In this document: positions 41,594 to 57,875 of the stretch, one piece after another
Position numbering within the stretch: the stretch's first letter is position 1
Layout of the letters: each line of letters begins with the position of its first letter
Source: Nitrospirota bacterium
GTDB lineage: Bacteria > Nitrospirota > UBA9217
Reading direction: 5' to 3'
NCBI GenBank assembly: GCA_963740085.1
Contig: CAVUCU010000007.1
Location: 122,835 to 186,834 of the forward strand
DNA length: 64,000 bases
Made by a program: the position numbers and the translations under genes
The notes under the pieces: generated by a model
What the model saw: only the letters and a program-made list of their open reading frames with translations
Told to the model about the DNA's origin: nothing
Database searches by the model: none

Positions 41594-42355
41594 TCATCCC
41601 CTCGCGGACATCCTCACCATCCCGACGGGATTCGGAGAAGGACGCTTGTAACCTTTTTCCTGGACCACGACGTCCAGGGGCAGGCTCATCAGGTCGGCAA
41701 GATCCGGCGTCATGCGGCCGAGCAGTTTCCCGTCCACCGTCTTGACATATGATTTGCACGAATCACAGGCACGGACCGTAAATCCTTTTTCATTCCTGAC
41801 AAAGAAGGTGTTCAACAGTTTCGTATCCTTGTTGTGACAAACAGCACAACCGCCGGCATCACCCCGTCCTTTCGTACCGCAAAAAGAACAGTGCAGCTGG
41901 TGCAGGCCTTCCCTTGAGACGGACAACAGAGATGGCCGCGCGGCGCACACAGGACACCTTCCTTCTTCCCAAAAGCGGCCATCGCGCTGCAGGACCTCAT
42001 GCATCCCGAGAAAGTACGGCCTGCTTAAGAGAAAGAGAAGCATCATGAGATCGTCCTCGGGATAGGGGAGCGAGAAGGCCGGCACTTCGAGCAACGGGAG
42101 TCTCGTAAAATCGACCTCGCCAAGCTCCAGGGCCTGTTTCAGGGGGGACAGGCTGCCTTCGGGCAGATCAATGACAGGCTGGAAGCGCTCAACGATCCTG
42201 CCAACGAACTCCGGCGGATAAGCTTTCAGACCCGGTCTCGAAGGCATACCGAGTGTTTTCACCGCCTCCGCGAATTGGACGGACCTTTCATAGAACCTCA
42301 GTGTGTCCTCGAGATGCGGCTTTTTCGCGATAATTGATTCGATGATTGGGTCCAC
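41594..42355 (-). CDS. FdhE-like protein (four CxxC pairs)
   Basis: 'CPVCAARP', 'CSFCG', 'CAVCHNKD' and 'CDSCKSY' are present. The size is approximately 253 aa. No formate dehydrogenase structural genes are in the window. Confidence 0.5.
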   Translation of the reverse strand: MDPIIESIIAKKPHLEDTLRFYERSVQFAEAVKTLGMPSRPGLKAYPPEFVGRIVERFQPVIDLPEGSLSPLKQALELGEVDFTRLPLLEVPAFSLPYPEDDLMMLLFLLSRPYFLGMHEVLQRDGRFWEEGRCPVCAARPSLLSVSREGLHQLHCSFCGTKGRGDAGGCAVCHNKDTKLLNTFFVRNEKGFTVRACDSCKSYVKTVDGKLLGRMTPDLADLMSLPLDVVVQEKGYKRPSPNPVGMVRMSARG

Positions 42356-44370: not shown

Positions 44371-46347
44371 TTACAGTTTTCCCTTCACCAGGTTATTCAC
44401 CACCGATGGATCAGCCAGCGTCGAGGTATCGCCGAGTTCATCTATCTGGCCGTGCGCGATCTTCCGCAGGATGCGGCGCATGATCTTGCCGCTCCGCGTC
44501 TTCGGGAGTCCGGGCGCGAACTGCAGCTTGTCCGGAGTGGCGATCGGCCCGATGACCGAACGGACATGACCGGTGAGTATCTTCTTGAGCTCATCGGTCG
44601 GCTTGAATCCGTCCTTGAGTGTCACGTAAACATAGATCCCTTCGCCCTTGATGTCATGCGGATAGCCGACCACTGCGGCCTCGGCGACCGCTTCGTGGCT
44701 GACGAGCGCGGACTCGACCTCGGCCGTGCCGAGCCGGTGTCCGGACACGTTGATCACATCATCTACGCGGCCCATGAGCCAGTAATCGCCGCTCTCGTCC
44801 ACCCGCGCGCCGTCACCGGTAAAGTACTTGCCCGGGAACCTGCTGAAGTAGACCTCTTTGATGCGCTTGTTCTCGGGATCGCCGTAGGTGCCGCGTAGCA
44901 TGCCGGGCCAGGGCTTATTGATGCATAGGTATCCGCCCTCGTTTGCACCGGCCGGCGAACCGTCTTCTTTTACTACCTGGGGTACGACCCCGGGGAACGG
45001 TCTCGTTGCCGAACCTGGCTTAGCCGTGATCGCGCCGGGAAGCCCGGTGATCAGGATTCCGCCGGTCTCGGTCTGCCACCACGTGTCAACGATCGGTACT
45101 TTTTCCCTGCCCACAAACTTATGGTACCACATCCACGCCTCGGGATTGATGGGCTCGCCCACGCTTCCAAGGACCTTCAGGGACGACAACTCGTGGCTGG
45201 TCACCCACTTATCCCCTTCTTTCATCAGGGCGCGGATCGCCGTGGGTGCGGTATAGAAGATATTCACCCGATGTTTGTCCACAATGTCCCAGAACCTGCC
45301 CGGATCGGGATAGCTCGGGATGCCCTCGAACATGAGCGACGTCGCTCCGTTCGAAAGCGGTCCGTAGAGGATATAGCTGTGGCCCGTGACCCATCCGATG
45401 TCGGCGGTGCAGAAGTGGATGTCCTCATCATGGTAGTCGAAGATCCACCGGAAGCTCAAATTGGTATAGAGCATGTAACCAGCCGTGGTGTGCAGCACTC
45501 CCTTGGGTTTTCCCGTGGAGCCGGAGGTGTAGAGGATGAAGAGCGGGTCCTCAGCGTCCATCTTCTCGGGCTCGCAATAATTGGCGATGTCCTTCCCTGC
45601 CATCTCCTCATGCCACCAGGTGTCCCTGCCCGGTTCCATGTTTATCTTGCCCGTGCCTGCCCGCTGAACCACGATCATGTCCTTGACCGTCGGGCATTCA
45701 AGGATCGCCTCATCGGCGTTCGCCTTCAAAGGCACGTACCGGCCGCCACGGACCCCTTCGTCCGCGGTGATGACCATGGATGACTGGCAATCCTGGATGC
45801 GGTCACGCATTGCCTTCGCGGAAAAACCGCCAAACACCACGCTGTGTATCGCGCCCACCCGGGCGCAGGCCAGCATGGAGATGGCAAGCTCCGGGATCAT
45901 CGGCAAATAGATGGTGACCCGGTCTCCCTTCTTGATGCCCTTCTTCTTGAGAACGTTGGCGAAGCGGTTCACCTCGGTGTAAAGCTGCTGGTAGGTGAAG
46001 GTCTTGTATTCCCCGCCATCTGACTCCCAGATGAGCGCCGCCTTGTTGCGCGTCGTAGTATTGATGAACCGGTCAAGGCAGTTCACCGAGGCATTCAACT
46101 TACCACCGCTGAACCACTTGATATACGGCTTGTGAAAATCATAGTCCAGGACCTTGTCCCACTTTTTGTACCACGTGAGGTTCTTCTCAGCCATCTCGGC
46201 CCAGAACTTGTCGGGCTCGTCTATGGACCTCTTGTAGATCTTTTCGTACTCCTTCATGCTCTTGATATGAGCTTTTGCGCTGAACTCCTTTGATGGGGGA
46301 AACTCTCTTTTTTCCGTTGATAGGACCTGGATGCTTTCATCAGCCAT
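44371..46347 (-). CDS. acs: acetyl-CoA synthetase
   Basis: 'MADESIQ...', AMP-binding '[13 protein letters not shown]', 'YWLMGRVDD' and the C-terminal Lys context are present. The true start at 46347 follows an AGGAG RBS. Confidence 0.9.
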
Positions 46348-46515: not shown

Positions 46516-48327
46516 TCATTTAAAATGTTCGATCTCTCTGGGATACCGGAGGTTCTGCACCATCTCCTGAACCTGCTGCGGCGGTTCCTTCGTCACCATC
46601 GAGATGACGAACATGACAATGAAGTTGATGCACATACCGATGGTGCCGATGCCTTCAGGCGAGATGCCCCAAAGCCAGTTGCTGGCATTGTTCGCCCCAG
46701 GATTGACGAACTTGAAGTAAATGATATACGCGGCGGTAAAGGCAATCCCGCTCAGCATGCCGAGCATGGCGCCTTCCTTGGTTGCCCGCTTCCAGAAGAT
46801 GCCCATGATGATCACCGGGAAGAAGGATGATGCCGCAAGACCGAAGGCAAAGGCCACGACCTGCGCCACGAATCCCGGAGGGTGGATGCCGAAATAACCG
46901 GCGATAACGACTGCCCCACCGGCCGAGGCCCTGGCCCAGATCAGTTCGCCTTTCTCCGAAATGTCCTTCTTTGCTATGGACTTGACAAGGTCATGTGAAA
47001 TGGCCGCAGCGATAACGAGAAGCAGTCCGGCGGCAGTCGAAAGAGCAGCGGCCAGACCTCCCGCAGCAACAAGGGCGATGACCCATGCGGGGAGCTTCGC
47101 AATCTCAGGGTTGGCAAGCACCATGATATCATTATCGATATACAACTCGTTCGTACTTTTATCGTCTAGGGGCGTCGTAACAATGTTCTCGCCGTACTGG
47201 CCGACCTTAAATGCGCCAGCCGCGTCCTTCTCAAATGCGACCTTGCCCTTGAAGGCATTGCCTTTTGCATACTGGATCTTGCCGTCGTTGTTCTTGTCCT
47301 TCCAGGCGACCAAACCGGTTTTCTCCCAGTTCTTGAACCAGGACGGGGCCTCAGCATAGGTCTTGTTGTTCAACGTGTTTATCATGTTGATCCGGGCAAA
47401 GGAAGCAACTGCCGGTGCCGTGGTGTACAGGATTGCGATGAAAAGCAGTGCCCAGCCGGCCGAAGCGCGGGCGCCCTTGATCGTCGGTGTCGTGAAGAAG
47501 CGGATGATGATGTGAGGAAGACCGGCGGTTCCGACCATGAGCGCGAAGGTGATCATGAACACGTCGATCGTGCTCTTCGCGCCTCCCGCAGTATAGGCCC
47601 TGAAACCGAGATCTATCTGGATCTGGTTAAGCTTTTCAAGCAGATAGCCACTGCCGGTCCCCAGAATCTTCATGCCGTTCTCGCTCAGACTGCTGCCGTA
47701 GCCGAACTGTGGGATCGGGTTGCCGGTGAGCATGATCGAAATGAAGATCGCCGGGATCATGTATGCCATGATCAGCACGCAGTACTGCGCCACCTGTGTA
47801 TAGGTAATGCCCTTCATGCCTCCCAGCACGGCATAGAAGAAGACGATGGCCATACCGATCAGAACGCCGGTGTTGATGTCCACTTCGAGGAAGCGCGAGA
47901 ACACCACGCCCACGCCGCGCATCTGACCGGCGACATAGGTGAATGAAACGAAGATCGCACAGACCAAGGCTACGACTCTCGCGGACTGCGAATAATATCG
48001 TTCACCCACGAACATGGGGACCGTGTATTTCCCGTATTTGCGCAGGTAGGGGGCCAGGAGCATGGCAAGCAGCACGTAGCCGCCTGTCCAGCCCATGAGA
48101 TACATGGAGCCGTCCCTGCCCATGAACGAGATAAGGCCCGCCATGGAAATAAAGGAAGCCGCCGACATCCAGTCGGCGCCGGTGGCCATACCGTTCAGTA
48201 CCGGATGTATCTGCTTGGCAGCAACATAGAACTCACCCGTCGTCTTGGCCTTCGCCCAGAAAGCGATGCCGATATAGAGGGCAAAGGATGCCCCCACAAT
48301 AATCCACGTCCATGTTAATATATTCAT
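46516..48327 (-). CDS. sodium:solute symporter family cation/acetate symporter (ActP-like)
   Basis: This is an SSS-family topology of approximately 14 TM helices ('GMATGADWMSAASFISMAG'). It is adjacent to acs. Confidence 0.85.
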   Translation of the reverse strand: MNILTWTWIIVGASFALYIGIAFWAKAKTTGEFYVAAKQIHPVLNGMATGADWMSAASFISMAGLISFMGRDGSMYLMGWTGGYVLLAMLLAPYLRKYGKYTVPMFVGERYYSQSARVVALVCAIFVSFTYVAGQMRGVGVVFSRFLEVDINTGVLIGMAIVFFYAVLGGMKGITYTQVAQYCVLIMAYMIPAIFISIMLTGNPIPQFGYGSSLSENGMKILGTGSGYLLEKLNQIQIDLGFRAYTAGGAKSTIDVFMITFALMVGTAGLPHIIIRFFTTPTIKGARASAGWALLFIAILYTTAPAVASFARINMINTLNNKTYAEAPSWFKNWEKTGLVAWKDKNNDGKIQYAKGNAFKGKVAFEKDAAGAFKVGQYGENIVTTPLDDKSTNELYIDNDIMVLANPEIAKLPAWVIALVAAGGLAAALSTAAGLLLVIAAAISHDLVKSIAKKDISEKGELIWARASAGGAVVIAGYFGIHPPGFVAQVVAFAFGLAASSFFPVIIMGIFWKRATKEGAMLGMLSGIAFTAAYIIYFKFVNPGANNASNWLWGISPEGIGTIGMCINFIVMFVISMVTKEPPQQVQEMVQNLRYPREIEHFK

Positions 48328-48417: not shown

Positions 48418-48678
48418 CTACTTTTCGTGTACGTCGTATTTGATATCCAGATGGTTCATGAGCTTCACATAGACGAGGATGAGGATCACGAAGATGACCT
48501 CTGATCCCTGGTTCGCGAACCAGAACCCCAGCGGGAAGCCGGCAATCTTGATAGTGTCCAGCGCGTCGGCAAAAATAATACCGCAGAGATAGGAAACAGT
48601 GAACCAGATGCTGAGCAGGATCACAATGTACGTCAGATTCTCCTTCCAGTACGCTGCTTGATTCAATTTTGTAGCCAT
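48418..48678 (-). CDS. DUF4212-family protein, putative solute symporter small subunit
   Basis: The 86-aa two-TM protein carries 'GFPLGFWFANQGS' and sits immediately upstream of the SSS symporter. Confidence 0.6.
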   Translation of the reverse strand: MATKLNQAAYWKENLTYIVILLSIWFTVSYLCGIIFADALDTIKIAGFPLGFWFANQGSEVIFVILILVYVKLMNHLDIKYDVHEK

Positions 48679-48818
48679 ACGATTCCTCCTTTATACTCGC
48701 TTAGATTATGATCTTGCATATAGTCGCTGATAGTTCATACCTTGCTGATGCAATATCGTTTCTTCCCGTCACCCCCCTCCTGAAGAAAAAACATCCTATA
48801 CAAGCTTCATGGACACTC

Positions 48819-49544
48819 TCACGGGCTTCCTATTCTGAGCAGATCGTCCACGGTCCTTATGCCCCACTGCGGCAGTTCGCCGAGCATGCGCTGCAAGAGC
48901 TGAGCGGTAATGAACGCATCGCTCAGAGCATTGTGTGCATTCTGCACGGTTATATTATATTCTGCGGCGATCGAGAAGAGATCGCCCCTGTCCGGAGAAC
49001 CGCCGTGATAGGCGCAACGGTCTTCTTTCCTGGCAGCGATCCAATTGTAGAGTTTGTACGTATCAACCACCCGGTTCCTCAACGGCTTCCCGTACAGTTC
49101 CTTCATCTCCCGGTTCAGGAACTGGAGATCGATGGACACGACATGGCCTGCCATAAGCGAGTCATCGCAGAACTCAAGGAACTGCGGGAGCAGGGTGTCG
49201 ATCCGGGGCGATCCAGCCGCTTCCGTGGGCGTGATCCCGTGGATGATCACGCTCCCCGCGGTCAGTGCCGTGCGGGGATCGACCTGGCCGTAGAACGTTT
49301 CTCCCAGGAGTATCCTCCCGCCGCGTACCTTCACGGCTCCGATCGAGACAATGGAATCCTTTTTTGCCTTGAGTCCGGTGAGCTCCGTATCGAAGACCAC
49401 AAAGTTCGCGTTACGCAGGTCTTCAGCTTTATCTCCGGAGCGAAGCCCTGCGGACGACGTCCCTTGCCGCTGATCGGACTGACCTGCACCCGCCCCGTCC
49501 CTGCCGAAGAATGTGCTCGTATAGTGGATGAATGAACTTATCAT
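48819..49544 (-). CDS. DEDD-family 3'-5' exonuclease (DnaQ/Pol III epsilon-like)
   Basis: Exo I 'FVVFDTELTGL', Exo II 'MAGHVVSIDLQFL' and Exo III 'YHGG...HNALSDAFITAQL' are present. Confidence 0.8.
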   Translation of the reverse strand: MISSFIHYTSTFFGRDGAGAGQSDQRQGTSSAGLRSGDKAEDLRNANFVVFDTELTGLKAKKDSIVSIGAVKVRGGRILLGETFYGQVDPRTALTAGSVIIHGITPTEAAGSPRIDTLLPQFLEFCDDSLMAGHVVSIDLQFLNREMKELYGKPLRNRVVDTYKLYNWIAARKEDRCAYHGGSPDRGDLFSIAAEYNITVQNAHNALSDAFITAQLLQRMLGELPQWGIRTVDDLLRIGSP

Positions 49545-51556
49545 TACATCACGGTCCCGGGACTATACTGCTTCGTAACAGCGTCCTGCATGCGGCTGAG
49601 GAACTGGCATGTTTCTTTCAGCGTTCTCTTCTCGAGGTTGGACAAGGCATCGGGATTGATGAAGTTATCGGGTTCCTTGCCGTTCTCGATCTGTTCATAC
49701 TGGTGATGGATCCTGAGGAGTATCAGAAAATCGAAGGCCTGCTTCATTTCTTCGCCGAACTCCTTCACGACGGGATGGTTTTCCATGAGCGCGTCGATGC
49801 GCTCAAGCGTGGACGTTTGCGGCACTCCCTTCTCAAGACTATAAAGCCGGACAATGTCGAGGAAGGGGGCGATGCATTTGAACTTGAGGTTCAATTCATC
49901 CTTGTGCTCTCCCGTCTTTTCCACCACAAAGGTCTTGAAGAACCCGAGGGGCGGGTGAAGCATCACCGCCATGTCCGCCATGCGCTTCAGGAAAATGTCA
50001 TGCCCCTTCAGCGTCTCGCTCAAATGGCCCCGCAATGTTTCCGAAAGTACGGTATCGCCGTGGAGCCCCCGGAAATCGAACAGGATGGCAGAAAGCAAAA
50101 TGGCCTCTGACGTGGGGGTGTAGATCCATTCCCGGAAATACTCCTTCCAGACGCTGAGCGGTTTCCTCCATTTGGGGTTGCTCGCCATGTAGCCGCCCGG
50201 GCAGGGGGGAAATCCGCACTGGACGAGCGATTCGATCACGAGGGCGGAAAATTTCTCAAAATACTCCTCAGCAGCCCGGGCCTCATCATCGGTTCCCGGG
50301 TCCGCATAAATGAGCCCGTTGTCCTGGTCCGTTTTGAATGTCTGTTCCTTACGACCCTCGCTGCCGTACACCAGCCAGCAGTAGGCGAGCGGCGGCGGTC
50401 CCAGTTTCCTCTCGGCGAGTTCGAGCACTTTCCGAACCAGCCGGTCATTTATTTCCGTAAAGACCTTGGAGATATTGCTCGCCTTGGCCCCTTCCTTCAG
50501 CAGGAGTCCCACGATGCCGTTGATCTTCTTCGAAACCGGGACCAGTCCCTCGATGGTCTGCTGGCTCTCAATGTCCTTGGTGAGCGAGAGCGGAGAGGTG
50601 CCCTGGAGCATCATCAGATCGTGGTTCGTGATCACACCCATAAGCCGGCCGTCCTTGATCACGAGGATGTGGTGAATGTTATATTTGATCATTTTAAGGA
50701 CTGCCTCAAAACAGTAGTCCTGCGCATCCACCCGGATGAGGGTAGTGCTCATGATGTTCTTCACCTTTTCTCCAATGTCCCTGCCTTTCGCGACGATCTT
50801 CTCCCGCAAATCACGGTCGGTCAAAACTCCCAATGGCAATTTGTTTCTGTCCATGATAATAATGGAACTTATCCGGTTCTCGGACATGATGGCGGCCGCC
50901 TCCTGAACCGTCGTGTCCTCCTGCGTGGAAACCACGTTCTTGATCGCCAGGTCCCCCACCCGCGTCGTGAACAGAATGCGGTCGCTGCTGCTGTAAAACA
51001 TGCTCTTGTCCTGCATTTCGCGGTAGGTTTTGTCGAGGTAACGGGTGATATGGGATTGAAGGAAGAATTCAGTGAAGGAGAGATGCTGATCGAGCAGTTT
51101 CAAAACCATTTCCTGCCCCAGGAGGTAGCAGATCGTGTCATCGACAGCCACGACGTTGGTGCGCACCCGGTCTTTGCCGACCATGGACAGGAAACCGAAG
51201 GTGTCCCCCTCCCCCCGATAATCGATGATAATCTCTCCGCCGTCTTCCGAAACCAGGACGATCTTCACGCCTCCCTTTTTGATGATACGGAGCGCATCGC
51301 TCGGTGATCCGTCCTGTTTCAGAATCACCATGTACCTGGGGTAGAACTCCATGGACAGGTTTCGGGCAACGGCCTGGAGATCCGCATCGTCGAGGAACTG
51401 GAATGGCGGGACCTTCTTCAGGAAGGCAATCGCATCTTCAAGGATAATATTGTTTCCATGATTCGACGTTGCGTGGGATTTCATGTTCTCTACGTAAGCA
51501 AAATAAAGACCATATTTATGAATTGTAGAAAACTGTTTCCATTTCATTAGTTCCAA
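49544..51556 (-). CDS. cNMP-binding + CBS-pair + DUF294 (predicted nucleotidyltransferase) signalling protein
   Basis: An N-terminal cyclic-nucleotide-binding fold and two CBS motifs are followed by a pol-beta-like nucleotidyltransferase region with a C-terminal DUF294_C-like part. The stop overlaps the exonuclease ATG (TAATG). Confidence 0.8.
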   Translation of the reverse strand: MELMKWKQFSTIHKYGLYFAYVENMKSHATSNHGNNIILEDAIAFLKKVPPFQFLDDADLQAVARNLSMEFYPRYMVILKQDGSPSDALRIIKKGGVKIVLVSEDGGEIIIDYRGEGDTFGFLSMVGKDRVRTNVVAVDDTICYLLGQEMVLKLLDQHLSFTEFFLQSHITRYLDKTYREMQDKSMFYSSSDRILFTTRVGDLAIKNVVSTQEDTTVQEAAAIMSENRISSIIIMDRNKLPLGVLTDRDLREKIVAKGRDIGEKVKNIMSTTLIRVDAQDYCFEAVLKMIKYNIHHILVIKDGRLMGVITNHDLMMLQGTSPLSLTKDIESQQTIEGLVPVSKKINGIVGLLLKEGAKASNISKVFTEINDRLVRKVLELAERKLGPPPLAYCWLVYGSEGRKEQTFKTDQDNGLIYADPGTDDEARAAEEYFEKFSALVIESLVQCGFPPCPGGYMASNPKWRKPLSVWKEYFREWIYTPTSEAILLSAILFDFRGLHGDTVLSETLRGHLSETLKGHDIFLKRMADMAVMLHPPLGFFKTFVVEKTGEHKDELNLKFKCIAPFLDIVRLYSLEKGVPQTSTLERIDALMENHPVVKEFGEEMKQAFDFLILLRIHHQYEQIENGKEPDNFINPDALSNLEKRTLKETCQFLSRMQDAVTKQYSPGTVM

Positions 51557-52014
51557 TTATGCATGCTCACTGACTTACGGAAATTACAAGAAAATGCTGT
51601 TATTTACCTTTTCACGTTTTACTCGGCGACAATGCGATAAATTACATAAAATCAATATGTTTTGTTGTCTTCTCTGTAGCCTGTGACAAAAATAGCAGTA
51701 GAATGCATTATGGTGCATAATGGGAATTTATAGAGGTTCACACTTTATAAATATGGACTAAAAAAAATTCTTCACCGCGAATTCATATGATGAAGTCATA
51801 TACTTTAAGGCAGCCATCTCATCCGTAACTAATAGTAATATGCGCCGTGCAGGCAGGCTACTAAAGGTAACCGGGATGGCCGCCAGTAATTTCACACAGT
51901 ATACTTAAACTATGCTTATAATAAATCATCGTGATCACGCATCTGTCCAATTCACTTAACAACGGCTCGATCATTTGTTAGTATTGAACGAACCAATTAT
52001 TTGGGAAAGGTCAT

Positions 52015-52626
52015 ATGGCGGGAATAAACAAGTCTGGTGAAGACAAGGCGTGGGAGATACTTTCGACGCTGAAGCCGGCGGATGTCTGTAAAGCAGCATC
52101 AGTTGTCTATGATGCGACGTCCATAAGTTACCAGGTGACGTCATTCGGCATGAACTTTATCGTTTCCGAGCGAGACAAAAGGTTCTCAAGCCCGGCTTCG
52201 GAGAGCGATGTGCTGCTCGGAAGGCTCGGTTCCTTCTTCCGGCTCTCTGTCCTTTGGTATCTGGTTAGTGCCAAGGACATTGCCTGCACCAACAGGACCG
52301 TGAAACTCGAACACATCAGGGGCGGCGAGATATTCACCAGGGGATCACATGTCCTGCCGCTCGACAGTGTCGCGAACAAGTATGGGAACAACCGGGAAGG
52401 ATTTTTTGCAAAAGGGAAAGATCTTGGTGGTGAGATCATGACTTACGGGGACGCTTCGCTCCGGCTTGCGCCTTTGCCACGAATACCCGTCACCCTGGTG
52501 CTCTGGCTGGAGAACAACGAATTTCCCGCCCGTCTTGACCTGCTGTTCGATTCAACCTGTGTTATGCAATTGCCCACGGACATCATCTGGTCCATTGCCA
52601 TGATGAGCGTACTGATCATGCTCTGA
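52015..52626 (+). CDS. hypothetical protein (possibly DUF3786-like)
   Basis: The 203-aa product has no recognised catalytic motif. An RBS-like GGAAAGG precedes the ATG. Confidence 0.45.
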   Translation: MAGINKSGEDKAWEILSTLKPADVCKAASVVYDATSISYQVTSFGMNFIVSERDKRFSSPASESDVLLGRLGSFFRLSVLWYLVSAKDIACTNRTVKLEHIRGGEIFTRGSHVLPLDSVANKYGNNREGFFAKGKDLGGEIMTYGDASLRLAPLPRIPVTLVLWLENNEFPARLDLLFDSTCVMQLPTDIIWSIAMMSVLIML

Positions 52627-52738: not shown

Positions 52739-53209
52739 TCATCGATTGTTGTTCTTTTCAATTATCTGCTTCGCCATGGACGCGAGTACACCATCCGGGC
52801 TCACGGTAAATGGCTCGACGGCCTGAATCGCCCTCGGTCCGCCTATCTGTCCCAAGCTGCGGATCGCGCTCTTCATCACGACGGGCGACTGATCAACAGC
52901 AAGCAACTGTATGAGAGGCGAGATCGCCTCGCGGGAACCGATCATGCCCAGCGCTTTTACCGCGCTCTTCCGCACCCGCTCTTCCGGGTCGCTGAACATG
53001 GCGATAAGCCGCGGCACAGCCTCATGCGAACCAAGCTCCCCGAGGGAATAGGCGGCGTTGTTCCTGACCGCCATGATTTTGTCGTCGAGCGCCTCTATCA
53101 AAGCCTTCTCGGCCCCCTTGCCCTTAAGCTTCCCGAGTTCGGCGGCGGCGTTCACCCGGACCATCCCGAGACCGTTCTTCAGATCATTGATCAAACGCTC
53201 AAGACTCAT
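52739..53209 (-). CDS. HEAT-repeat (PBS-lyase-like) protein
   Basis: Repeated approximately 30-aa units 'AVRNNAAYSLGELGSHEAVPRLIAM / VRKSAVKALGMIGSREAISPLIQLL / VMKSAIRSLGQIGGPRAIQAV' are present. Confidence 0.7.
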   Translation of the reverse strand: MSLERLINDLKNGLGMVRVNAAAELGKLKGKGAEKALIEALDDKIMAVRNNAAYSLGELGSHEAVPRLIAMFSDPEERVRKSAVKALGMIGSREAISPLIQLLAVDQSPVVMKSAIRSLGQIGGPRAIQAVEPFTVSPDGVLASMAKQIIEKNNNR

Positions 53210-53418: not shown

Positions 53419-54768
53419 CTACCGTTCCCTCGGGATCCCCCACTTCTTTCTCTTCTCCCAGAGCGATTTCCGGGTGATCCAGAGCATGTCCGCAAGCTGC
53501 TGTTCGTTGAACTGGCCCTGGTATCTCTGGATGAATGCCTTGGTGTATTCCTCGATGGAAAGCTTTTTGTCAAAGACCTCCGCCTCGAACGATGCCGCCG
53601 CCGTGAGCCCCGCGGGCAGATGTGCGGGGGCGATGACGTCGCCGTCGGAAACAAGGATGGCGCGCTCGATGACGTTCTGGAGCTCACGGACGTTCCCCGC
53701 CCACTCGTAGTTCATCATGAGCTCCAGGGAATCGGGCGCGAGCTCTTTGACGGGTCTCCCCATCTCGTGAGAGTATTTCTCCAGATAGTGCGTTACCAGC
53801 GCCTTGATGTCTTCTTTCCGTTCCCGGAGCGGCGGGATCTGGAGCGAGATGACATTGATCCGGTAATAGAGGTCCTCGCGGAAGGCGTTCTGCTTTACCG
53901 CTGTCTTCAGGTCCTTGTTCGTCGCGGTGATGAACCGGATGTCGACCTTGCTGCCTTTGGTGCTGCCGACGGGGCGGATCACCTGGTCTTCGATGACCCG
54001 GAGCAGTTTGGCCTGGAGCGAGAGGCTCATGTCGCCGATCTCGTCGAGGAACACGGTGCCGCCCTCGGCTTCTTCGAGGATGCCTTTCTTGGTGGCGACC
54101 GCGCCGGTAAAGGCCCCGCGCACGTGGCCGAAAAGCTCGGTCTCGAGCAGGTTCTCGGGGATCGCGGAGCAGTTGATGGGGACAAAGGGCATGTCGCGGC
54201 GGGAGCTGTTGTGGTGGATGACCCGGGCAAAGAGCTCCTTGCCGGTGCCGGTCTCGCCGAGCAGCAGGACGCTGCTCTTGGCGTCCGTGACCTTCCGGAC
54301 CTCGTCGAGGATGGCCCGAAGCGCCGGGCTCTCGCCGATGATGCTGCTGAAGTCGTGCTCCTTCCCGATCTCGCGCTTGAGCAGCACGTTCTCGGCCTGG
54401 AGGCTCTTCTGACGGAGGGCGTTCCGGACGACCTGCTTGATCTCTTCGTGGATGACCGGCTTCATGATGTAGTCGTAGGCGCCCGCGCGGAGCGCTTTGA
54501 TGGAGGTGTCGAGCGACGCATAGGCGGTGACGACGATGACGATCTGGTCCGGGTCCTGTTCCCGCACCCGGGTGAGCATCTCGATGCCGTCCATGCCCGG
54601 CAGGATGATGTCCGTCAGGATGACGTCGTACACGCCGGTTTCAAGGAGGGCAAGGCCCTTCTCCGCCGACTCGGCCCCGTCCACCGTGTACCCTTCCTTG
54701 ACAAAGATGCGCTTGATGGACTCACGCAGCGTCTCTTCGTCTTCTACGATCAAGATGTTCCTGGACAT
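53419..54768 (-). CDS. sigma-54-dependent response regulator (NtrC/CbrB-like: REC + AAA+ enhancer-binding domain + HTH)
   Basis: 'ILIVEDEETLRESI...DVILTDIILPGMDG', 'GETGTGKE', 'GAFTGA' and the ESFELFGHVRGAF context are present, with a C-terminal HTH. Confidence 0.85.
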   Translation of the reverse strand: MSRNILIVEDEETLRESIKRIFVKEGYTVDGAESAEKGLALLETGVYDVILTDIILPGMDGIEMLTRVREQDPDQIVIVVTAYASLDTSIKALRAGAYDYIMKPVIHEEIKQVVRNALRQKSLQAENVLLKREIGKEHDFSSIIGESPALRAILDEVRKVTDAKSSVLLLGETGTGKELFARVIHHNSSRRDMPFVPINCSAIPENLLETELFGHVRGAFTGAVATKKGILEEAEGGTVFLDEIGDMSLSLQAKLLRVIEDQVIRPVGSTKGSKVDIRFITATNKDLKTAVKQNAFREDLYYRINVISLQIPPLRERKEDIKALVTHYLEKYSHEMGRPVKELAPDSLELMMNYEWAGNVRELQNVIERAILVSDGDVIAPAHLPAGLTAAASFEAEVFDKKLSIEEYTKAFIQRYQGQFNEQQLADMLWITRKSLWEKRKKWGIPRER

Positions 54769-54917
54769 CGAAGCCTCAATCAGAATAAAATGCAAAAGTC
54801 AAAATGCGAAAGGTAAAGTGCACCACCACATGAGACGCGGATGACAGGATTTCGTTCGGAGAAATCTTTTTGAGTTTCCTAAGCGGCCCTTTTCCTATAA
54901 GGCATGTGCCTCAGCGG

Positions 54918-57875
54918 TTAATTCTGATCATTAGTTTCAATGGGTATTTTAATAATAAACCGCGTCCCCTTGTCCTTTTCCGAATCGATCTCTATCGTCC
55001 CGCCGTGGTCCTTGATAATGCTATAACAGATGCTGAGTCCCAGACCCGTACCCTTCGTCGGCCCTTTGGTGCTGAAGAAGGGATCAAAAACCGCGTCCCT
55101 CGCCTCCGCGTCTATACCGTGTCCCGTGTCGGCAAAGCGCACCTCAACATGACTGTCCAGCTGTTTAATTGAGATATCGAGGTCCCCGCCGTCAGGCATT
55201 GCATCGCGCGCGTTCAGGATCAGGTTCAGGAAGACCTGCTGGATCTGGTCGGGGTCGATCTTGAGCTTCGGGGTATCCTGCACTTCCGTGCGAATCATCA
55301 CCTTCCGGAAGTTTTTGTCGTAGCGAACGAGGTTCAGCGTGTTCTCAAGGATGTCCTGAAGGCTCGTCGGCAATTTCTGGCGCGGGTAAAGCCGGGCGAA
55401 ATCGCCGAGGTTCCGCACGATCCGCGCGATCCGGTGTACGTGCTGATTGATCGTGCCGAGCGAATCCTTCTCAAAGGACGACAGGTCCTCGGTCAACAGC
55501 TCCTGAACCAGGGACGAGATGGACGCAAGCGGGTTGCCGACCTCATGGGCCACGCCCGCAGCAAGCCTGCCCACGCTTGCGTGCTTGGTGGCGCGGAACA
55601 GTTCCTCTTCGATCTTCTTCTTCTCGGTGATGTCCTCAAGAACGAGAACGTATCCCTTTTGCGCTCCCGTTAGCCTGCTGAGGTAGCCCTTCAGAGTGAT
55701 CTGGGGATCGAAGTTCCGACTGCAGGTAATTTCGCCCTCATGTACGTCAGGGTTGAATAGCCGCGGCTCCAGACACTTCAGCAGGTCTTTGGCCTGTTTG
55801 TTCAAAGCGTCGGACCTCTCCACGTCCGTTATCATGGTCATGCCGCTGTTCCAGTAGGTAACCTGCAGCGCCTCATCGAGGGTCGCCACGCCGAGCGGAA
55901 GACTTTCGATGATGTTCTCGCTGAACTCCTTGAGCATGGCAAGCTGCCGGTTCGCCTCGGCGAGTTCCTGTCGCGACAGCCGCAGGCTCCGGGATATCTG
56001 CCGAATAGAGTCCGAGACGCGGAGTGCGTCATCGTGCGTCAGGACCGTCTGGTCCTGGAAGACCAGGGTGCTGATGGACGGGCCGAGAGCGCCTGACAGG
56101 ATGCGTTCGGCCTCTTCCCTGAGCTTCAAAAGCCACTCGTTCGATATCGATTTGCGAGCTATGCTGTTCTTTTTCAAAAAACCGTCCACAGCTTCGCTCG
56201 CTTCGTGCTTGCCGATGTACTGACCCAGGATGTCCTCGATCTTTGCAATATCAGCGGGCCGGTGGGCCTGAGAGAACTGGAGCGGCGAATAGGAGTCAAC
56301 GAAGATTATGGCCTGGCGGGTCTCGGCATCGGACTGACGGGTGAAGATCGATACACCCACGAAGGAGAGGAGGTTCAGCAGCAGGCCCCAGAACAGTGAG
56401 TGGGTCCATCGGTCGAGGCCTGTGAGGCCGAAGAGAGCCGTGGGGTTCAGGAGCCTTGATCTGAAGATCTCTCCCATGACGCCTCCGGGTTCGATGATCC
56501 CGGCGCGCATGAGCGCAGGGATGAGAAGCGTGTATATCCAGACGCTGAAGCCGGCAATGATCCCGGCGATAGCGCCCTTCTTGTTGCCGCCTTTCCAGTA
56601 AAGGCCGAGCAGGATCGATGGGGCAAAGATCGTGACCGCCTCGAAGGACTTGAGCCCGATGTCCACAAGGGTGTAGTACTCACCGATGTAGACGGCAAAA
56701 GTATACCCGAGGAACACCAACCCCAGGATGACGGCCCGCTTGATGTTCAGCATCACCGCCGAAAAGTTCTTGAACGCCCTCAAATTCCATAACGTGGGCA
56801 TCACAAAACTGTTCATGACCATGGTGGACAGCGCCACGGACTCCACAATGATCATGGCCGTGGCAGCCGAGAATCCGCCGATGAACACAAAGATCGCCAG
56901 CAGCGGTTGGCCGTGGTGCAGGGGGATGCTCAGTACGAAATAGTCCGCTGTGGATTGGATATCCCCGAGCAGCAGCCCGCCGTAGGCGATGGGCAGCACG
57001 AAAATATTTATCAGGAACAGATAGAGGGGAAAGAGCCACATCGCCTTTTTGATGTGGTCAGCCGAATAATTTTCCACAACAGCCACGTGGAATTGTCGCG
57101 GCAGGAACATGATGGCCATCATGGACAGGAAGGTGAGGGATGTCCATTCAAGGAAGCTGACCGGCGATCCCTCGCCGATCTTCGTCAGTGAAGCATACTG
57201 CGTATGTGCAATTTTCTGGAAAATATCTCCGAAGCCGTTAAAGATCCCATACGTCACAAAAAATCCGACGCTCATGAATGCTACCAGCTTGATCGCCGAT
57301 TCAAAAGCCACGGCGAAGACCAGACCGCCGTGGCGCTCACTTGCATCGAGCTTTCGCGCACCGAAGATAACGGCAAACACGCCAAGGAGCAGCGAGATGA
57401 ACCAGCCCATAAAGTGGATGTCTTCGGGCCTGCCCGAGAGCAGGGAGAACGTCGATGTGATGGCCTTGAGCTGGAGCCCGAGATAGGGGGTGATGCCGAT
57501 AACTGCCACGATCGTGACCAGGACGGAGAGACCGACGGATTTGCCGTAGCGCGACGAAATGAAATCAGAGATCGTGGTGATCCGATTTTCCTTGGAAAGG
57601 TACACGATCTTCCTGAGCACGATCCACCAGAGCGCGGCCATGAGCGTGGGACCGATGTAGGTCGTGAGAAAGCTCAAACCCGAATTCGCCGCCCTGCCCA
57701 CGCTGCCGTAAAAGGTCCAGGAGGTGCAGTAAACAGCGAGGGAGAGCGAATAGATATAGGGGTTTGAAACCAGGCTCCTCCCCTGCTCTTCCTTTAGTTC
57801 CGCAAAATAGGCAACGGAAAAGAGGAGCAGGAGGTAGCCAAAGATGATGGTGAGCAGGATCCAGGGCGAGAACAC
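54918..57875 (-). CDS. hybrid sensor: N-terminal sodium:solute symporter (SLC5/SSS) domain fused to PAS + HisKA + HATPase histidine kinase (CbrA/CrbS-like; GTG start)
   Basis: Approximately 13 TM helices are predicted in the first approximately 500 aa. The H-box is 'AGVAHEVGNPL', and N/G boxes 'NLILNARDAM' and 'GTGLGLSI' are present. Confidence 0.85.
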   Translation of the reverse strand: MFSPWILLTIIFGYLLLLFSVAYFAELKEEQGRSLVSNPYIYSLSLAVYCTSWTFYGSVGRAANSGLSFLTTYIGPTLMAALWWIVLRKIVYLSKENRITTISDFISSRYGKSVGLSVLVTIVAVIGITPYLGLQLKAITSTFSLLSGRPEDIHFMGWFISLLLGVFAVIFGARKLDASERHGGLVFAVAFESAIKLVAFMSVGFFVTYGIFNGFGDIFQKIAHTQYASLTKIGEGSPVSFLEWTSLTFLSMMAIMFLPRQFHVAVVENYSADHIKKAMWLFPLYLFLINIFVLPIAYGGLLLGDIQSTADYFVLSIPLHHGQPLLAIFVFIGGFSAATAMIIVESVALSTMVMNSFVMPTLWNLRAFKNFSAVMLNIKRAVILGLVFLGYTFAVYIGEYYTLVDIGLKSFEAVTIFAPSILLGLYWKGGNKKGAIAGIIAGFSVWIYTLLIPALMRAGIIEPGGVMGEIFRSRLLNPTALFGLTGLDRWTHSLFWGLLLNLLSFVGVSIFTRQSDAETRQAIIFVDSYSPLQFSQAHRPADIAKIEDILGQYIGKHEASEAVDGFLKKNSIARKSISNEWLLKLREEAERILSGALGPSISTLVFQDQTVLTHDDALRVSDSIRQISRSLRLSRQELAEANRQLAMLKEFSENIIESLPLGVATLDEALQVTYWNSGMTMITDVERSDALNKQAKDLLKCLEPRLFNPDVHEGEITCSRNFDPQITLKGYLSRLTGAQKGYVLVLEDITEKKKIEEELFRATKHASVGRLAAGVAHEVGNPLASISSLVQELLTEDLSSFEKDSLGTINQHVHRIARIVRNLGDFARLYPRQKLPTSLQDILENTLNLVRYDKNFRKVMIRTEVQDTPKLKIDPDQIQQVFLNLILNARDAMPDGGDLDISIKQLDSHVEVRFADTGHGIDAEARDAVFDPFFSTKGPTKGTGLGLSICYSIIKDHGGTIEIDSEKDKGTRFIIKIPIETNDQN

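Follow-up and report, generated by a model that had tools for sequence, protein, structure and literature searches.

We found that, as judged by comparative sequence analysis, a gene for a DUF294-family sensor nucleotidyltransferase and a gene for a DnaQ-like DEDDh 3'-5' exonuclease make up a conserved unit, coupled in translation, that heads a row of genes for monocarboxylate uptake and activation (DUF4212, SSS and acs). The pair lies in a 64,000-nucleotide stretch of DNA from a Nitrospirota bacterium, here called the window, and its features are collected in Table 1. It is homologous to PP_0354/PP_0353 of Pseudomonas putida KT2440 (PA3233/PA3232 in P. aeruginosa; Pflu5625 in P. fluorescens). 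Such a pairing has thus already been described in Pseudomonas, and the Nitrospirota pair is a new instance of it. An earlier note on this DNA had called the pairing recurrent but mechanistically uncharacterized, which agrees with the comparative data and with the literature up to September 2026.

Table 1. Positions of the genes, domains and regulatory elements discussed in the text, numbered from the first base of the window unless given as residues
Feature	Position	Strand	Remarks
Acetate-CoA ligase (acs)	44371..46347	-	NF001208, 1040 bits
VC_2705-family SSS symporter large subunit	46516..48327	-	603 aa; TIGR03648, 855.1 bits vs cut-off 321
DUF4212 / TIGR03647 sodium:solute symporter small subunit	48418..48678	-	109.7 bits vs cut-off 26
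DnaQ-like DEDDh 3'-5' exonuclease gene	48819..49544	-	241 aa
DUF294-family sensor nucleotidyltransferase gene	49544..51484	-	646 aa; coordinates include the stop codon
Transferase domains	residues ~53-134 (cNMP-binding), ~176-293 (CBS pair), 320-459 (DUF294 NTase), 497-640 (DUF294_C, helical)
Sigma-54-type -24/-12 promoter element TGGTCTTTATTTTGCT	51497..51512	-	Aligned relatives
Conserved AAACATATTGATTTTATG block	51645..51662	-	k-mer enrichment, alignment; between upstream repeats and promoter
Conserved inverted repeat ATTTATAGAG-N7-CTTTATAAAT	51726..51752	.	Candidate enhancer (activator-binding) site
Conserved TTACTATTAGTTAC block (TTAC-N6-TTAC / GTTAC)	51825..51838	-	k-mer enrichment, alignment; second candidate activator site
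NtrC-type sigma-54-dependent response regulator	53419..54795	-	Response_reg + Sigma54_activat + AAA lid
Sensor histidine kinase	54918..57875	-	N-terminal SLC5/SSF transporter-like domain, PAS, HisKA, HATPase_c (Pfam)

The maximal minus-strand open reading frames had been read as 49544..51556 for the DUF294 gene and 48819..49544 for the exonuclease gene. The TAATG overlap reported for the two genes on this strand proved to be real, with one shared base: position 49544 belongs both to the DUF294 stop codon (TAA, 49546-49544) and to the exonuclease start codon (ATG, 49544-49542). The DUF294 start at TTG 51556 had to be abandoned, being 72 nt too far upstream and taking in the promoter. Since the sigma-54 element (51512-51497) falls within the supposed first 24 codons, we assign the predicted start to ATG 51484; DUF294 homologues are 645-646 aa long. 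The start of the exonuclease at 49544 is supported by its closest homologues, which are 241 aa long with 100% coverage. No Shine-Dalgarno sequence precedes this ATG, and no other usable start codon was found by eye upstream of the first beta-strand. The coupling of the exonuclease gene to the DUF294 gene is, on comparison of related sequences, more than a matter of chance: an overlapping start was available in 25 of 67 related pairs and a start within 20 nt in 19 more, while the annotated genes overlap by 4, 1 or 8 nt or directly abut in Pseudomonas, Vibrio, Hymenobacter and Microvirga, and overlapping codons of the pair recur in four phyla.

The TGG and TTGCT of the sigma-54-type element are invariant in 12 aligned relatives, and an equivalent element was found upstream of the exonuclease-linked DUF294 gene in most of 80 loci. 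The ATG starts 14 nt past the C of the -12 GC, and a leaderless or near-leaderless mRNA is therefore predicted. A strict sigma-54 pattern (TGGC-N8-TGC) and a first scoring scan had returned nothing in the spacer. Both had missed the element, whose consensus in this local family is TGGTAT/TGGTCT and which emerged only when relatives were compared. The earlier note had described a 458-bp AT-rich regulatory region at 51557-52014. Such a region is present, with a GC content of 0.34-0.40 in the upstream spacer versus ~0.55 in the genes, but its non-coding extent is 51485-52014, i.e., 530 bp. Among the conserved blocks within it, AAACATATTGATTTTATG resembles, when read on the opposite strand, the IHF consensus WATCAA-N4-TTR and is a candidate site for it, and TTACTATTAGTTAC stands ~310 nt upstream of the sigma-54 promoter. 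The alignments indicate that, in relatives, a single conserved sigma-54 promoter stands before the DUF294 gene. No conserved sigma-54 element was detected between the exonuclease gene and acs, and a terminator scan gave no more sites than in shuffled sequence and none in the intergenic gaps down to acs; a sigma-70-like site does occur before acs. We infer that the pair is probably co-transcribed with acs.

As had been claimed, the DUF4212, SSS symporter and acs genes all lie downstream of the pair on the same strand. The DUF4212 gene, which has a strong Shine-Dalgarno sequence, begins 140 nt past the exonuclease stop, and the two TIGR03647/TIGR03648 symporter subunits, both above the cut-offs of their models, are encoded by adjacent genes. 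The probable start of acs is ATG 46347 (MADESIQ...); the maximal reading frame extends to 46452, and the NF001208 match begins at residue 44 of that frame. The SSF match of the upstream sensor kinase is weak (1e-5), and the synteny of this kinase with the pair is conserved, with a kinase gene in the same orientation no more than 8 kb upstream of the pair in 32 of the 51 related loci with enough sequence. Its architecture is CbrA-like, since no receiver domain was found. A gene for an NtrC-type regulator precedes the pair, in the same orientation, in 35 of the 51 loci. The Nitrospirota version is compact, with everything from sensor kinase and sigma-54 regulator through promoter and pair to transporter and acs at a single locus.

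Both the pairing and its linkage to acs turned out to be conserved. In the 80 Nitrospirota loci, the exonuclease gene comes next after 67 of 87 DUF294 genes, and acs follows 41 of 45 pairs. The single scan of genome contigs returned Nitrospirota only, and the evidence across phyla comes from eight plasmid or chromid records (seven of them annotated) and from the literature. The pair is also found in Alpha- and Gammaproteobacteria and in Bacteroidota, often with overlapping codons, and adjacency persists even where the gene order is reversed or the neighboring genes are not those of acetate metabolism. DUF294 paralogues lacking an adjacent exonuclease gene were observed as well: ten adjoin the response-regulator gene and six precede an MFS transporter and an Acs-like ligase gene. 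Paralogues of this kind are found between the kinase and regulator genes.

The two domain architectures read earlier from the sequence are both present by Pfam. The transferase matched cNMP_binding (PF00027; 4e-13, 49.5 bits), two CBS domains (PF00571; 4e-24, 85.2 bits), DUF294 (PF03445; 1e-52, 177.8 bits versus a cut-off of 21) and DUF294_C (PF10335; 6e-46, 156.2 bits versus 22.5). The Pol-beta-type catalytic motif G-S-x(9-13)-D-x-D (G374, S375, D386 and D388, with D470 as third carboxylate) is invariant in 20 sequences. The suggested cNMP sensing stands at the level of the domain only, since the phosphate-binding cassette reads F-G-F...R-T, with Phe in place of the conserved, canonical Glu; the CBS pair probably senses adenylates. 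The same output module is found with other sensors, in Cache-PAS-CBS, PASx3-CBS, 2xcNMP-CBS and CBS-only versions. In the long DUF294 proteins, the additional domains are such sensors (Cache, PAS or a second cNMP), and no fusion of DUF294 to a target or to an exonuclease was found among them.

A PDB sequence search with the transferase matched its CBS and cNMP domains only and nothing in the catalytic NTase region, and a predicted model and a fold search were therefore needed. The model of DUF294 plus DUF294_C (pLDDT 79) was built on a shallow alignment of 12 sequences with at least 60% identity. In this model, the NTase and the following helical domain appear superimposable on GlnE and DrrA, at 11-15% identity; only three Foldseek matches had E <= 0.001. 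Neither poly(A) polymerase, CCA-adding enzyme, cGAS nor OAS was among the 60 and 50 Foldseek matches listed, and no fold or sequence similarity of the catalytic module to RNA 3'-end nucleotidyltransferases (PAP, CCA-adding enzyme or TUTase) was seen among the matches listed. No GlnE or GlnD model of Pfam or NCBIfam was reported for the transferase at E <= 0.001. The transferase is a one-component sensor (cNMP-like domain plus CBS pair) whose output module has, in the modeled structure, the predicted fold and the catalytic motif of the GlnE/DrrA protein adenylyltransferases. A fold of this type would predict transfer of AMP from ATP to a Tyr, Thr or Ser hydroxyl of a protein.

The second protein is, as its sequence motifs indicate, a DnaQ-type DEDDh phosphodiesterase with intact catalytic residues. 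It matched RNase_T (PF00929; 4e-26, 92.8 bits), and its Exo I (D52/E54), Exo II (D139) and Exo III (H204/D209) residues are invariant or nearly so across four phyla. Its PDB sequence matches went down to 1e-17 and its Foldseek matches ranged from 1e-14 to 1e-9, with PolC exo, DinG exo, DnaQ and epsilon at 1e-14 to 1e-12. It is most closely related to exonucleases of DNA or RNA (PolC exo, epsilon, DinG exo, ExoX and RNase T), with which it shares the DEDDh motifs and the fold. In contrast to these, it is a stand-alone protein of 241 aa, with a 38-residue N terminus (residues 1-38) predicted to be disordered and always with DUF294 as partner. It scored below the NCBIfam cut-off of every named equivalog (Pol III epsilon, PRK09145, ExoX, etc.), the best being NF006601 (PRK09145; 114.7 bits versus 189), and only the broad domain model TIGR00573 was passed. 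PADLOC returned only a generic DEDDh model and PDC-S48 candidate models. The best 120 homologues, all of 196-281 aa, had exonuclease-type domains only and included no fusions.

Published genetics bear on the function of the pair. When P. putida grows on pyruvate, deletion of PP_0353 (exonuclease) slows growth and is complemented, as deletion of actP-I or yjcH likewise slows it, whereas deletion of PP_0354 (transferase) does not. Loss of the would-be eraser thus mimics loss of the transporter and loss of the writer is silent, as an inhibitory mark predicts. On propionate, however, the PP_0354 and PP_0353 deletions both reduce growth and the actP-I deletion has no effect, so that one inhibitory mark on the transporter does not suffice to explain the phenotypes. 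In Shewanella amazonensis and Pseudomonas stutzeri, mutants of the DUF4212/SSS symporter are cofit with a neighboring gene labeled both "COG2905" and "RNase T domain protein" (Price et al.), which, from the gene order, is presumably the exonuclease.

We tentatively favor a reading in which the pair consists of a sensor-controlled writer of protein nucleotidylylation and an exonuclease that acts as its eraser, together tuning monocarboxylate uptake, although we put this at somewhat below even odds. The writer/eraser idea of the earlier note is thereby retained, with a mark on a protein in place of a free nucleotide signal, as the predicted GlnE/DrrA fold suggests. The transferase would respond to a signal of nucleotide or energy state (the Acs reaction converts ATP to AMP) and would join an NMP, through a phosphodiester, to a hydroxyl group on a protein of the uptake and activation machinery, most likely the symporter or its small subunit, with Acs as the alternative, and the mark would damp the activity of its target. 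The exonuclease, kept in fixed ratio by translational coupling, would hydrolyze the phosphodiester, free 5'-NMP and restore activity; this de-nucleotidylylation would be the same chemistry as that of an exonuclease at a nucleic-acid 3' end. Such a throttle might match carboxylate influx and its ATP-consuming activation to the energy state of the cell. Less likely, but still conceivable, is the narrower claim that the DnaQ-type DEDDh "exonuclease" is a protein de-nucleotidylylase that erases the NMP marks set by the cNMP/CBS-regulated GlnE/DrrA-like transferase on a monocarboxylate symporter or acetyl-CoA synthetase. We know of no DEDD-family enzyme that removes NMP from proteins; the kinship of the exonuclease to enzymes of DNA and RNA, and the DUF294 paralogues with no exonuclease gene beside them, likewise count against the favored reading.

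Other arrangements of the two activities were weighed against this. The exonuclease might itself be the protein that is nucleotidylylated, the nuclease being thereby switched on or off and acting on an RNA that governs expression of the symporter, such as a small RNA or the mRNA of the operon or transporter. MNT antitoxins, which AMPylate HEPN RNases, set a precedent, but here the HEPN-like similarity belongs to the helical domain of the transferase and not to the exonuclease, and there are DUF294 paralogues that have no exonuclease beside them. Moreover, if the transferase merely inhibits the exonuclease, its deletion need not be silent on pyruvate, though it could be. Neither did an RNA element come to light: the Rfam search of the whole window gave no match, and the 140-nt spacer between the exonuclease and DUF4212 genes folded no better than shuffles (z 0.43) and, aligned with five relatives, had only AGGAGG conserved. 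We consider this arrangement unlikely. The RNA tailing and trimming module proposed in the earlier note, in which the transferase would tail a specific RNA with untemplated nucleotides for the exonuclease to trim, is more doubtful still. Enzymes that act on RNA 3' ends are known in both superfamilies, the exonuclease has RNase T among its structural matches, and the CCA-adding enzyme and RNase T provide a precedent for end turnover; the module is disfavored because the catalytic part of the transferase has the predicted fold of the GlnE/DrrA protein adenylyltransferases.

A second-messenger synthase with its degrading nuclease, like a CD-NTase with the CBASS nuclease Cap18 or like Orn acting on linear dinucleotides, seems the most improbable of all. 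The Cap18 3'-5' exonuclease does appear at rank 19 among the structural matches of the exonuclease and the sensor domains are typical of signaling enzymes, but the PADLOC search of defense-system profiles assigned the transferase to no CD-NTase or other family, no cGAS, DncV or OAS fold was among the matches listed, and the gene context is metabolic rather than that of a defense system. Finally, the two proteins might be co-regulated and act independently, for instance as a housekeeping DNA/RNA exonuclease and a transferase working on the two-component system. The paralogues that sit between kinase and regulator genes with no exonuclease, and the differing phenotypes of the two P. putida deletions on pyruvate, would fit such a division, to which we give as little credence as to RNA tailing. 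Against it stands the adjacency of the genes, which lie side by side in Nitrospirota, Alpha- and Gammaproteobacteria and Bacteroidota, as a rule with codons that overlap or abut; joint function is favored, because adjacency kept across phyla, in reversed order and in non-acetate contexts is hard to explain otherwise.

Should the protein-nucleotidylylation reading be right, the pair would be a widespread means of switching carboxylate uptake reversibly after translation, and the DEDD superfamily would gain its first substrate other than a nucleic acid; should it be wrong, the pair is simply one more example of a known, conserved gene neighborhood. COG2905/DUF294 proteins and their exonuclease partners are common; pathogens as well as environmental bacteria have them next to transporters for acetate, pyruvate and lactate. 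The catalytic module of the transferase accounts for 4,553 cluster representatives at 50% identity. The predicted protein-AMPylase fold and the genetics of the exonuclease and transferase mutants turn "unknown function" into a concrete hypothesis, namely, reversible protein nucleotidylylation that controls short-chain carboxylate uptake.

Among known systems, SelO and RNase Z provide a case in which an RNA-processing nuclease is the physiological eraser of protein AMPylation (PMC12663964), but their folds (a pseudokinase writer and a metallo-beta-lactamase nuclease) are unrelated and their genes are not a coupled pair. GlnE and the AMPylation domain of Legionella DrrA/SidM resemble the transferase in predicted fold and catalytic motif, with no membership in a common sequence family; they differ in their regulatory domains, which are cNMP/CBS in the transferase, and in the eraser, which is a second NTase domain for GlnE, the PPM-fold SidD for DrrA and, as proposed here, a separate DEDDh enzyme. 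GlnD, which feeds NtrB/NtrC, is a sensor-regulated NTase that writes an NMP mark, erases it through an HD domain and couples its output to a sigma-54 two-component circuit. The analogy is functional only, as GlnD holds writer and HD eraser in one polypeptide, whereas the window has separate genes. CbrA/CbrB couples an SLC5-domain kinase to an NtrC-type sigma-54 activator, and the window shares with it the SLC5-like domain, PAS, HisKA and HATPase_c with no receiver, and the NtrC-type sigma-54 regulator. Unlike that of CbrA/CbrB, the apparent regulon in the window is the acetate uptake and activation operon, which in Proteobacteria is under CrbS/CrbR. The PP_0354/PP_0353 genes are targets of this acetate two-component system (also MxtR/ErdR), and the DUF294-exonuclease genes are among those most strongly dependent on a CrbS/R-type system. 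Like the window pair, they encode a cNMP-CBS-DUF294-DUF294_C protein followed by an RNase_T-type exonuclease, adjacent or overlapping, and have among their linked genes acs and those for a monocarboxylate transporter of the SSS family with its small subunit. An SLC5/STAC-type sensor kinase controls them, and in the window a gene for an SLC5-like kinase lies upstream of the pair. The Pseudomonas genes are only ~25-35% identical to the window pair and form a separate operon in P. putida. CrbR is a LuxR/NarL-type regulator, whereas the regulator in the window is of the NtrC type with Sigma54_activat and the promoter is of the -24/-12 type. In Proteobacteria, the pair is activated by CrbR and is located either after the transporter genes or on its own; in the window it heads the operon, behind a predicted sigma-54 promoter and with an NtrC-type regulator.

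The gene row described in the earlier note was recovered in the window. The genes for the cNMP-CBS-DUF294 nucleotidyltransferase and the DEDDh exonuclease share base 49544, with the stop codon TAA (49546-49544) and the start codon ATG (49544-42) forming TAATG. Both ORFs and their Pfam domains were found; the DUF4212, SSS symporter and acs genes follow on the same strand, each with a profile match, and the spacer ahead of the DUF294 gene is AT-rich (GC 0.34-0.40, versus ~0.55 in genes). The observation was thus correct. The small HEAT-repeat and DUF3786 genes form an insertion that, among 80 Nitrospirota loci, is confined to the closest relatives (loci L001 and L006 have both genes; L008, L013 and L038 have DUF3786); in the other loci, the regulator gene immediately precedes the DUF294 gene. 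Farther along, the window encodes a 1402-aa protein (36669-40877, minus strand) with two BcrAD/BadFG activase ATPase domains, DUF2229 and a segment like the D component of 2-hydroxyglutaryl-CoA dehydratase, close to an FdhE_C-domain protein (41594-42355).

Features of the transferase-exonuclease locus and its surroundings in the window
Feature	Position	Strand	Match or remark
Histidine kinase gene, 985 aa		minus	SLC5/SSF-like N-terminus, PAS, HisKA, HATPase_c; upstream of pair
Response regulator gene, 458 aa		minus	Response_reg, Sigma54_activat, AAA lid; upstream of pair
Small HEAT-repeat gene	52739-53209	minus	after kinase and regulator genes
DUF3786 gene	52015-52626	plus	between two-component genes and operon
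TTAC-N6-TTAC block	51838-51825		conserved in 12-relative alignment
Inverted repeat	51752-51726		conserved in 12-relative alignment
IHF-like block AAACATATTGATTTTATG	51662-51645		conserved in 12-relative alignment
Predicted sigma-54 -24/-12 element TGGTCTTTATTTTGCT	51512-51497	minus	inside the ORF of the earlier note
Transferase gene, maximal ORF	49544..51556	minus	Pfam: cNMP_binding, two CBS, DUF294, DUF294_C
Exonuclease gene	48819..49544	minus	Pfam: RNase_T
DUF4212 gene	48418-48678	minus	TIGR03647; downstream of pair
VC_2705-family sodium:solute symporter gene	46516-48327	minus	TIGR03648, 855 bits
Sigma-70-like site with extended -10	46471-46443	minus	ahead of probable acs start 46347
Acetate-CoA ligase (acs) gene		minus	NF001208, 1040 bits; downstream of symporter gene
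NhaD antiporter gene		minus	downstream of acs, beyond 583-nt gap

The DUF294 start had been placed at TTG 51556; the length of the homologues (645-646 aa) points instead to ATG 51484. Strict sigma-54 patterns gave no match in the spacer before this gene. Across the 80 related loci, a -24/-12 element, TGGYAT-N5-TTGCT, was found directly upstream of the exonuclease-linked DUF294 gene; its TGG and TTGCT are invariant in a promoter-region alignment of 12 relatives, in which three further upstream blocks are conserved. Judged by sequence, this is a classical enhancer-dependent promoter layout, and the predicted promoter type agrees with the neighbouring gene for a sigma-54 activator. Counting from the C of the -12 GC, the ATG is reached after 13-14 nt in the window and in ~30 close relatives (L001-L026 equivalents), which predicts a leaderless or nearly leaderless sigma-54 mRNA. 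Leaders in more distant relatives measure 28-75 nt, and GGAGG-like Shine-Dalgarno motifs occur in several of them.

Between the exonuclease gene and acs, no conserved sigma-54 element was found in any locus compared, nor was a terminator-like site found in the intergenic gaps. Moreover, a Shine-Dalgarno sequence is absent before the exonuclease gene and strong before the DUF4212 and symporter genes. The simplest reading is thus a single transcript that would run from the sigma-54 promoter through acs. The acs family match starts at residue 44 of the maximal ORF (TTG 46452), which is probably over-extended, the likely start being ATG 46347 (MADESIQ). An AGGAGG at 48776-48781 (minus strand), ~40 nt past the exonuclease stop and ~100 nt ahead of the DUF4212 start, is invariant in six loci with the same DUF4212/SSS type; DUF4212 has its own Shine-Dalgarno sequence, and neither a conserved small ORF nor an RNA structure was found that would account for the motif.

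The window derives from a Thermodesulfovibrionia-like Nitrospirota MAG. In the 80 Nitrospirota loci, enough downstream sequence was available for 87 full-length DUF294 genes, and the next gene encodes the exonuclease in 67, a response regulator in 10 (paralogues embedded in two-component operons), an MFS transporter followed by an Acs-like ligase in 6, and something else in 4. An overlapping exonuclease start is available in 25 of the 67 pairs, and a start within 20 nt in 19. Both the conservation of the pair, which extends to other phyla, and its linkage to acs were borne out, acs lying within 4.5 kb downstream in 41 of the 45 pairs with enough flanking sequence. On the same strand upstream, we found a sigma-54 regulator in 35/51 and a kinase in 32/51. 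A second full-length paralogue, 47-62% identical, sits between SLC5 kinase and sigma-54 regulator genes (L034 6466-8364, L036 4831-6765, L040 6146-8044; also L046, L053, L054, L058, L068, L069, L076, L079 and L080), without an exonuclease or its own sigma-54 promoter; from this position, the two-component system could be a target or a partner of DUF294 enzymes. A DUF294 gene that lacks an exonuclease partner and has the same kind of sigma-54 promoter occurs in L048 (9962-16387; also L020, L059, L065 and L071); behind it come, in order, a 76-aa ORF, an MFS transporter gene, the gene for an Acs-like acyl-CoA ligase with 44% identity to acs, and a member of the isochorismatase family. Locus L089 (5004-5594, ENA contig_79659), 99.4% identical to the window, carries a 1-nt insertion that shortens the exonuclease to 196 aa; this reflects either an assembly error in long-read data or a strain whose exonuclease is broken.

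In annotated plasmid and chromid records from other phyla, the order is DUF485-ActP-DUF294-exonuclease in P. aeruginosa (4-nt overlap), acs-DUF485-ActP-DUF294-exonuclease in Microvirga (abutting), DUF294-exonuclease beside a DMT transporter in Vibrio penaeicida (1-nt overlap), and reversed, exonuclease-DUF294, within a glycoside-hydrolase cluster in Hymenobacter (Bacteroidota; 8-nt overlap). Ruegeria and Paracoccus have DUF4212-SSS-DUF294, a small membrane protein and a long exonuclease. Across these loci, what is conserved at the core is the partnership of transferase and exonuclease; linkage to monocarboxylate transporters and acs is common but not obligatory. In Alphaproteobacteria, a conserved ~165-194-aa protein lies directly 3' of DUF294 (L082 8872-9456, L083 8820-9317, L088 8799-9317); it has a hydrophobic N-terminus, probably membrane-spanning, and no Pfam match, and its three copies are mutually homologous (E 5e-17 to 2e-19). 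The Ruegeria and Paracoccus exonucleases measure 479-659 aa, the Paracoccus protein with a ~450-residue N-terminal region without Pfam match.

The exonuclease has a complete DEDDh residue set, conserved across phyla, and a predicted standard DnaQ fold with a disordered 38-residue N-terminus; its scores against all named exonuclease equivalog models were below threshold. Since the PDB held no sequence relative of the transferase catalytic module, its C-terminal 347 residues were modelled (pLDDT 79, pTM 0.79). Foldseek gave just three matches at E <= 0.001 among those listed, aminoglycoside adenylyltransferases following more weakly. All the strong structural relatives, GlnE and DrrA included, are enzymes that add AMP to a protein tyrosine or remove it; the transferase appears to share the GlnE/DrrA fold, yet by sequence it does not belong to either family. 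Its G-S...D-x-D motif and third Asp showed no variation in 20 sequences compared. Across the catalytic-module family (4,553 representatives at 50% identity), the N-terminal sensors vary (Cache-PAS, PASx3, 2xcNMP, CBS only) and CBS plus the catalytic module are kept, as is typical of a signalling output domain. The claim of cNMP sensing held in part: the cNMP-like domain is present, with a phosphate-binding cassette F-G-F-L-S...R-V-R-T-N (51169-51213, residues ~91-105) that retains Arg-Thr, but the canonical Glu, which normally contacts the ribose 2'-OH, is replaced by an invariant Phe. The ligand may be something other than cAMP or cGMP.

The pair is homologous to PP_0354/PP_0353 of P. putida, PA3233/PA3232 of P. 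aeruginosa and Pflu5625 of P. fluorescens, which are direct, strongly dependent targets of the acetate two-component system CrbS/CrbR (MxtR/ErdR). In P. putida, deletions had no effect on 20 mM acetate. Growth on pyruvate was delayed by deletion of PP_0353 (exonuclease), a defect that was complemented, and not of PP_0354; actP-I and yjcH deletions likewise delay it. On propionate, both pair deletions lower growth. In Shewanella amazonensis and Pseudomonas stutzeri, cofitness between DUF4212/SSS symporters and an adjacent gene labelled 'COG2905 (RNase T domain protein)' was reported by Price et al., who guessed that this gene is required for symporter expression.

We favour, at somewhat less than even chances, a writer and eraser of protein nucleotidylylation. 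Under the control of its cNMP-like and CBS domains, the transferase would attach an NMP to an uptake or activation component and damp it; the co-translated DEDDh enzyme would cleave the phosphodiester, freeing 5'-NMP and restoring activity, by the reaction that DEDD enzymes carry out on 3' ends, the leaving group here being a protein hydroxyl. RNase Z, a deAMPylase for SelO (PMC12663964), provides a precedent for nucleases as erasers. The pyruvate and cofitness data are consistent with a mark that inhibits the transporter: loss of the eraser resembles loss of the transporter, and loss of the writer is silent. An adenylate-sensing brake would also make physiological sense, as Acs turns ATP into AMP. 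Against this model, we know of no DEDD-family de-NMPylase, and its fold support comes from a predicted structure.

Two further observations count against a writer and eraser: the propionate phenotypes of both deletions share direction, and DUF294 paralogues occur without an adjacent exonuclease. The foremost rival, in which the exonuclease itself is the regulated target in MNT-HEPN-like fashion, seems unlikely to us; next comes independent function of the two enzymes, to which we give little credence. Poly(A) polymerase, CCA-adding enzyme, cGAS and OAS are absent from the listed structure matches of the transferase model; we regard an RNA tailing/trimming module as quite improbable, and synthesis plus degradation of a second messenger, ranked last, as very improbable.

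The earlier note was right to call the pairing recurrent but mechanistically uncharacterised, and a September 2026 preprint likewise calls its function unclear. The window pair is a further case of an already known, functionally uncharacterised pair. The locus is homologous to the CrbS/R-controlled pair of Pseudomonas and works alike; it differs in its CbrA/CbrB-like kinase and regulator, its predicted sigma-54 promoter and in having the pair as the first genes of the operon.
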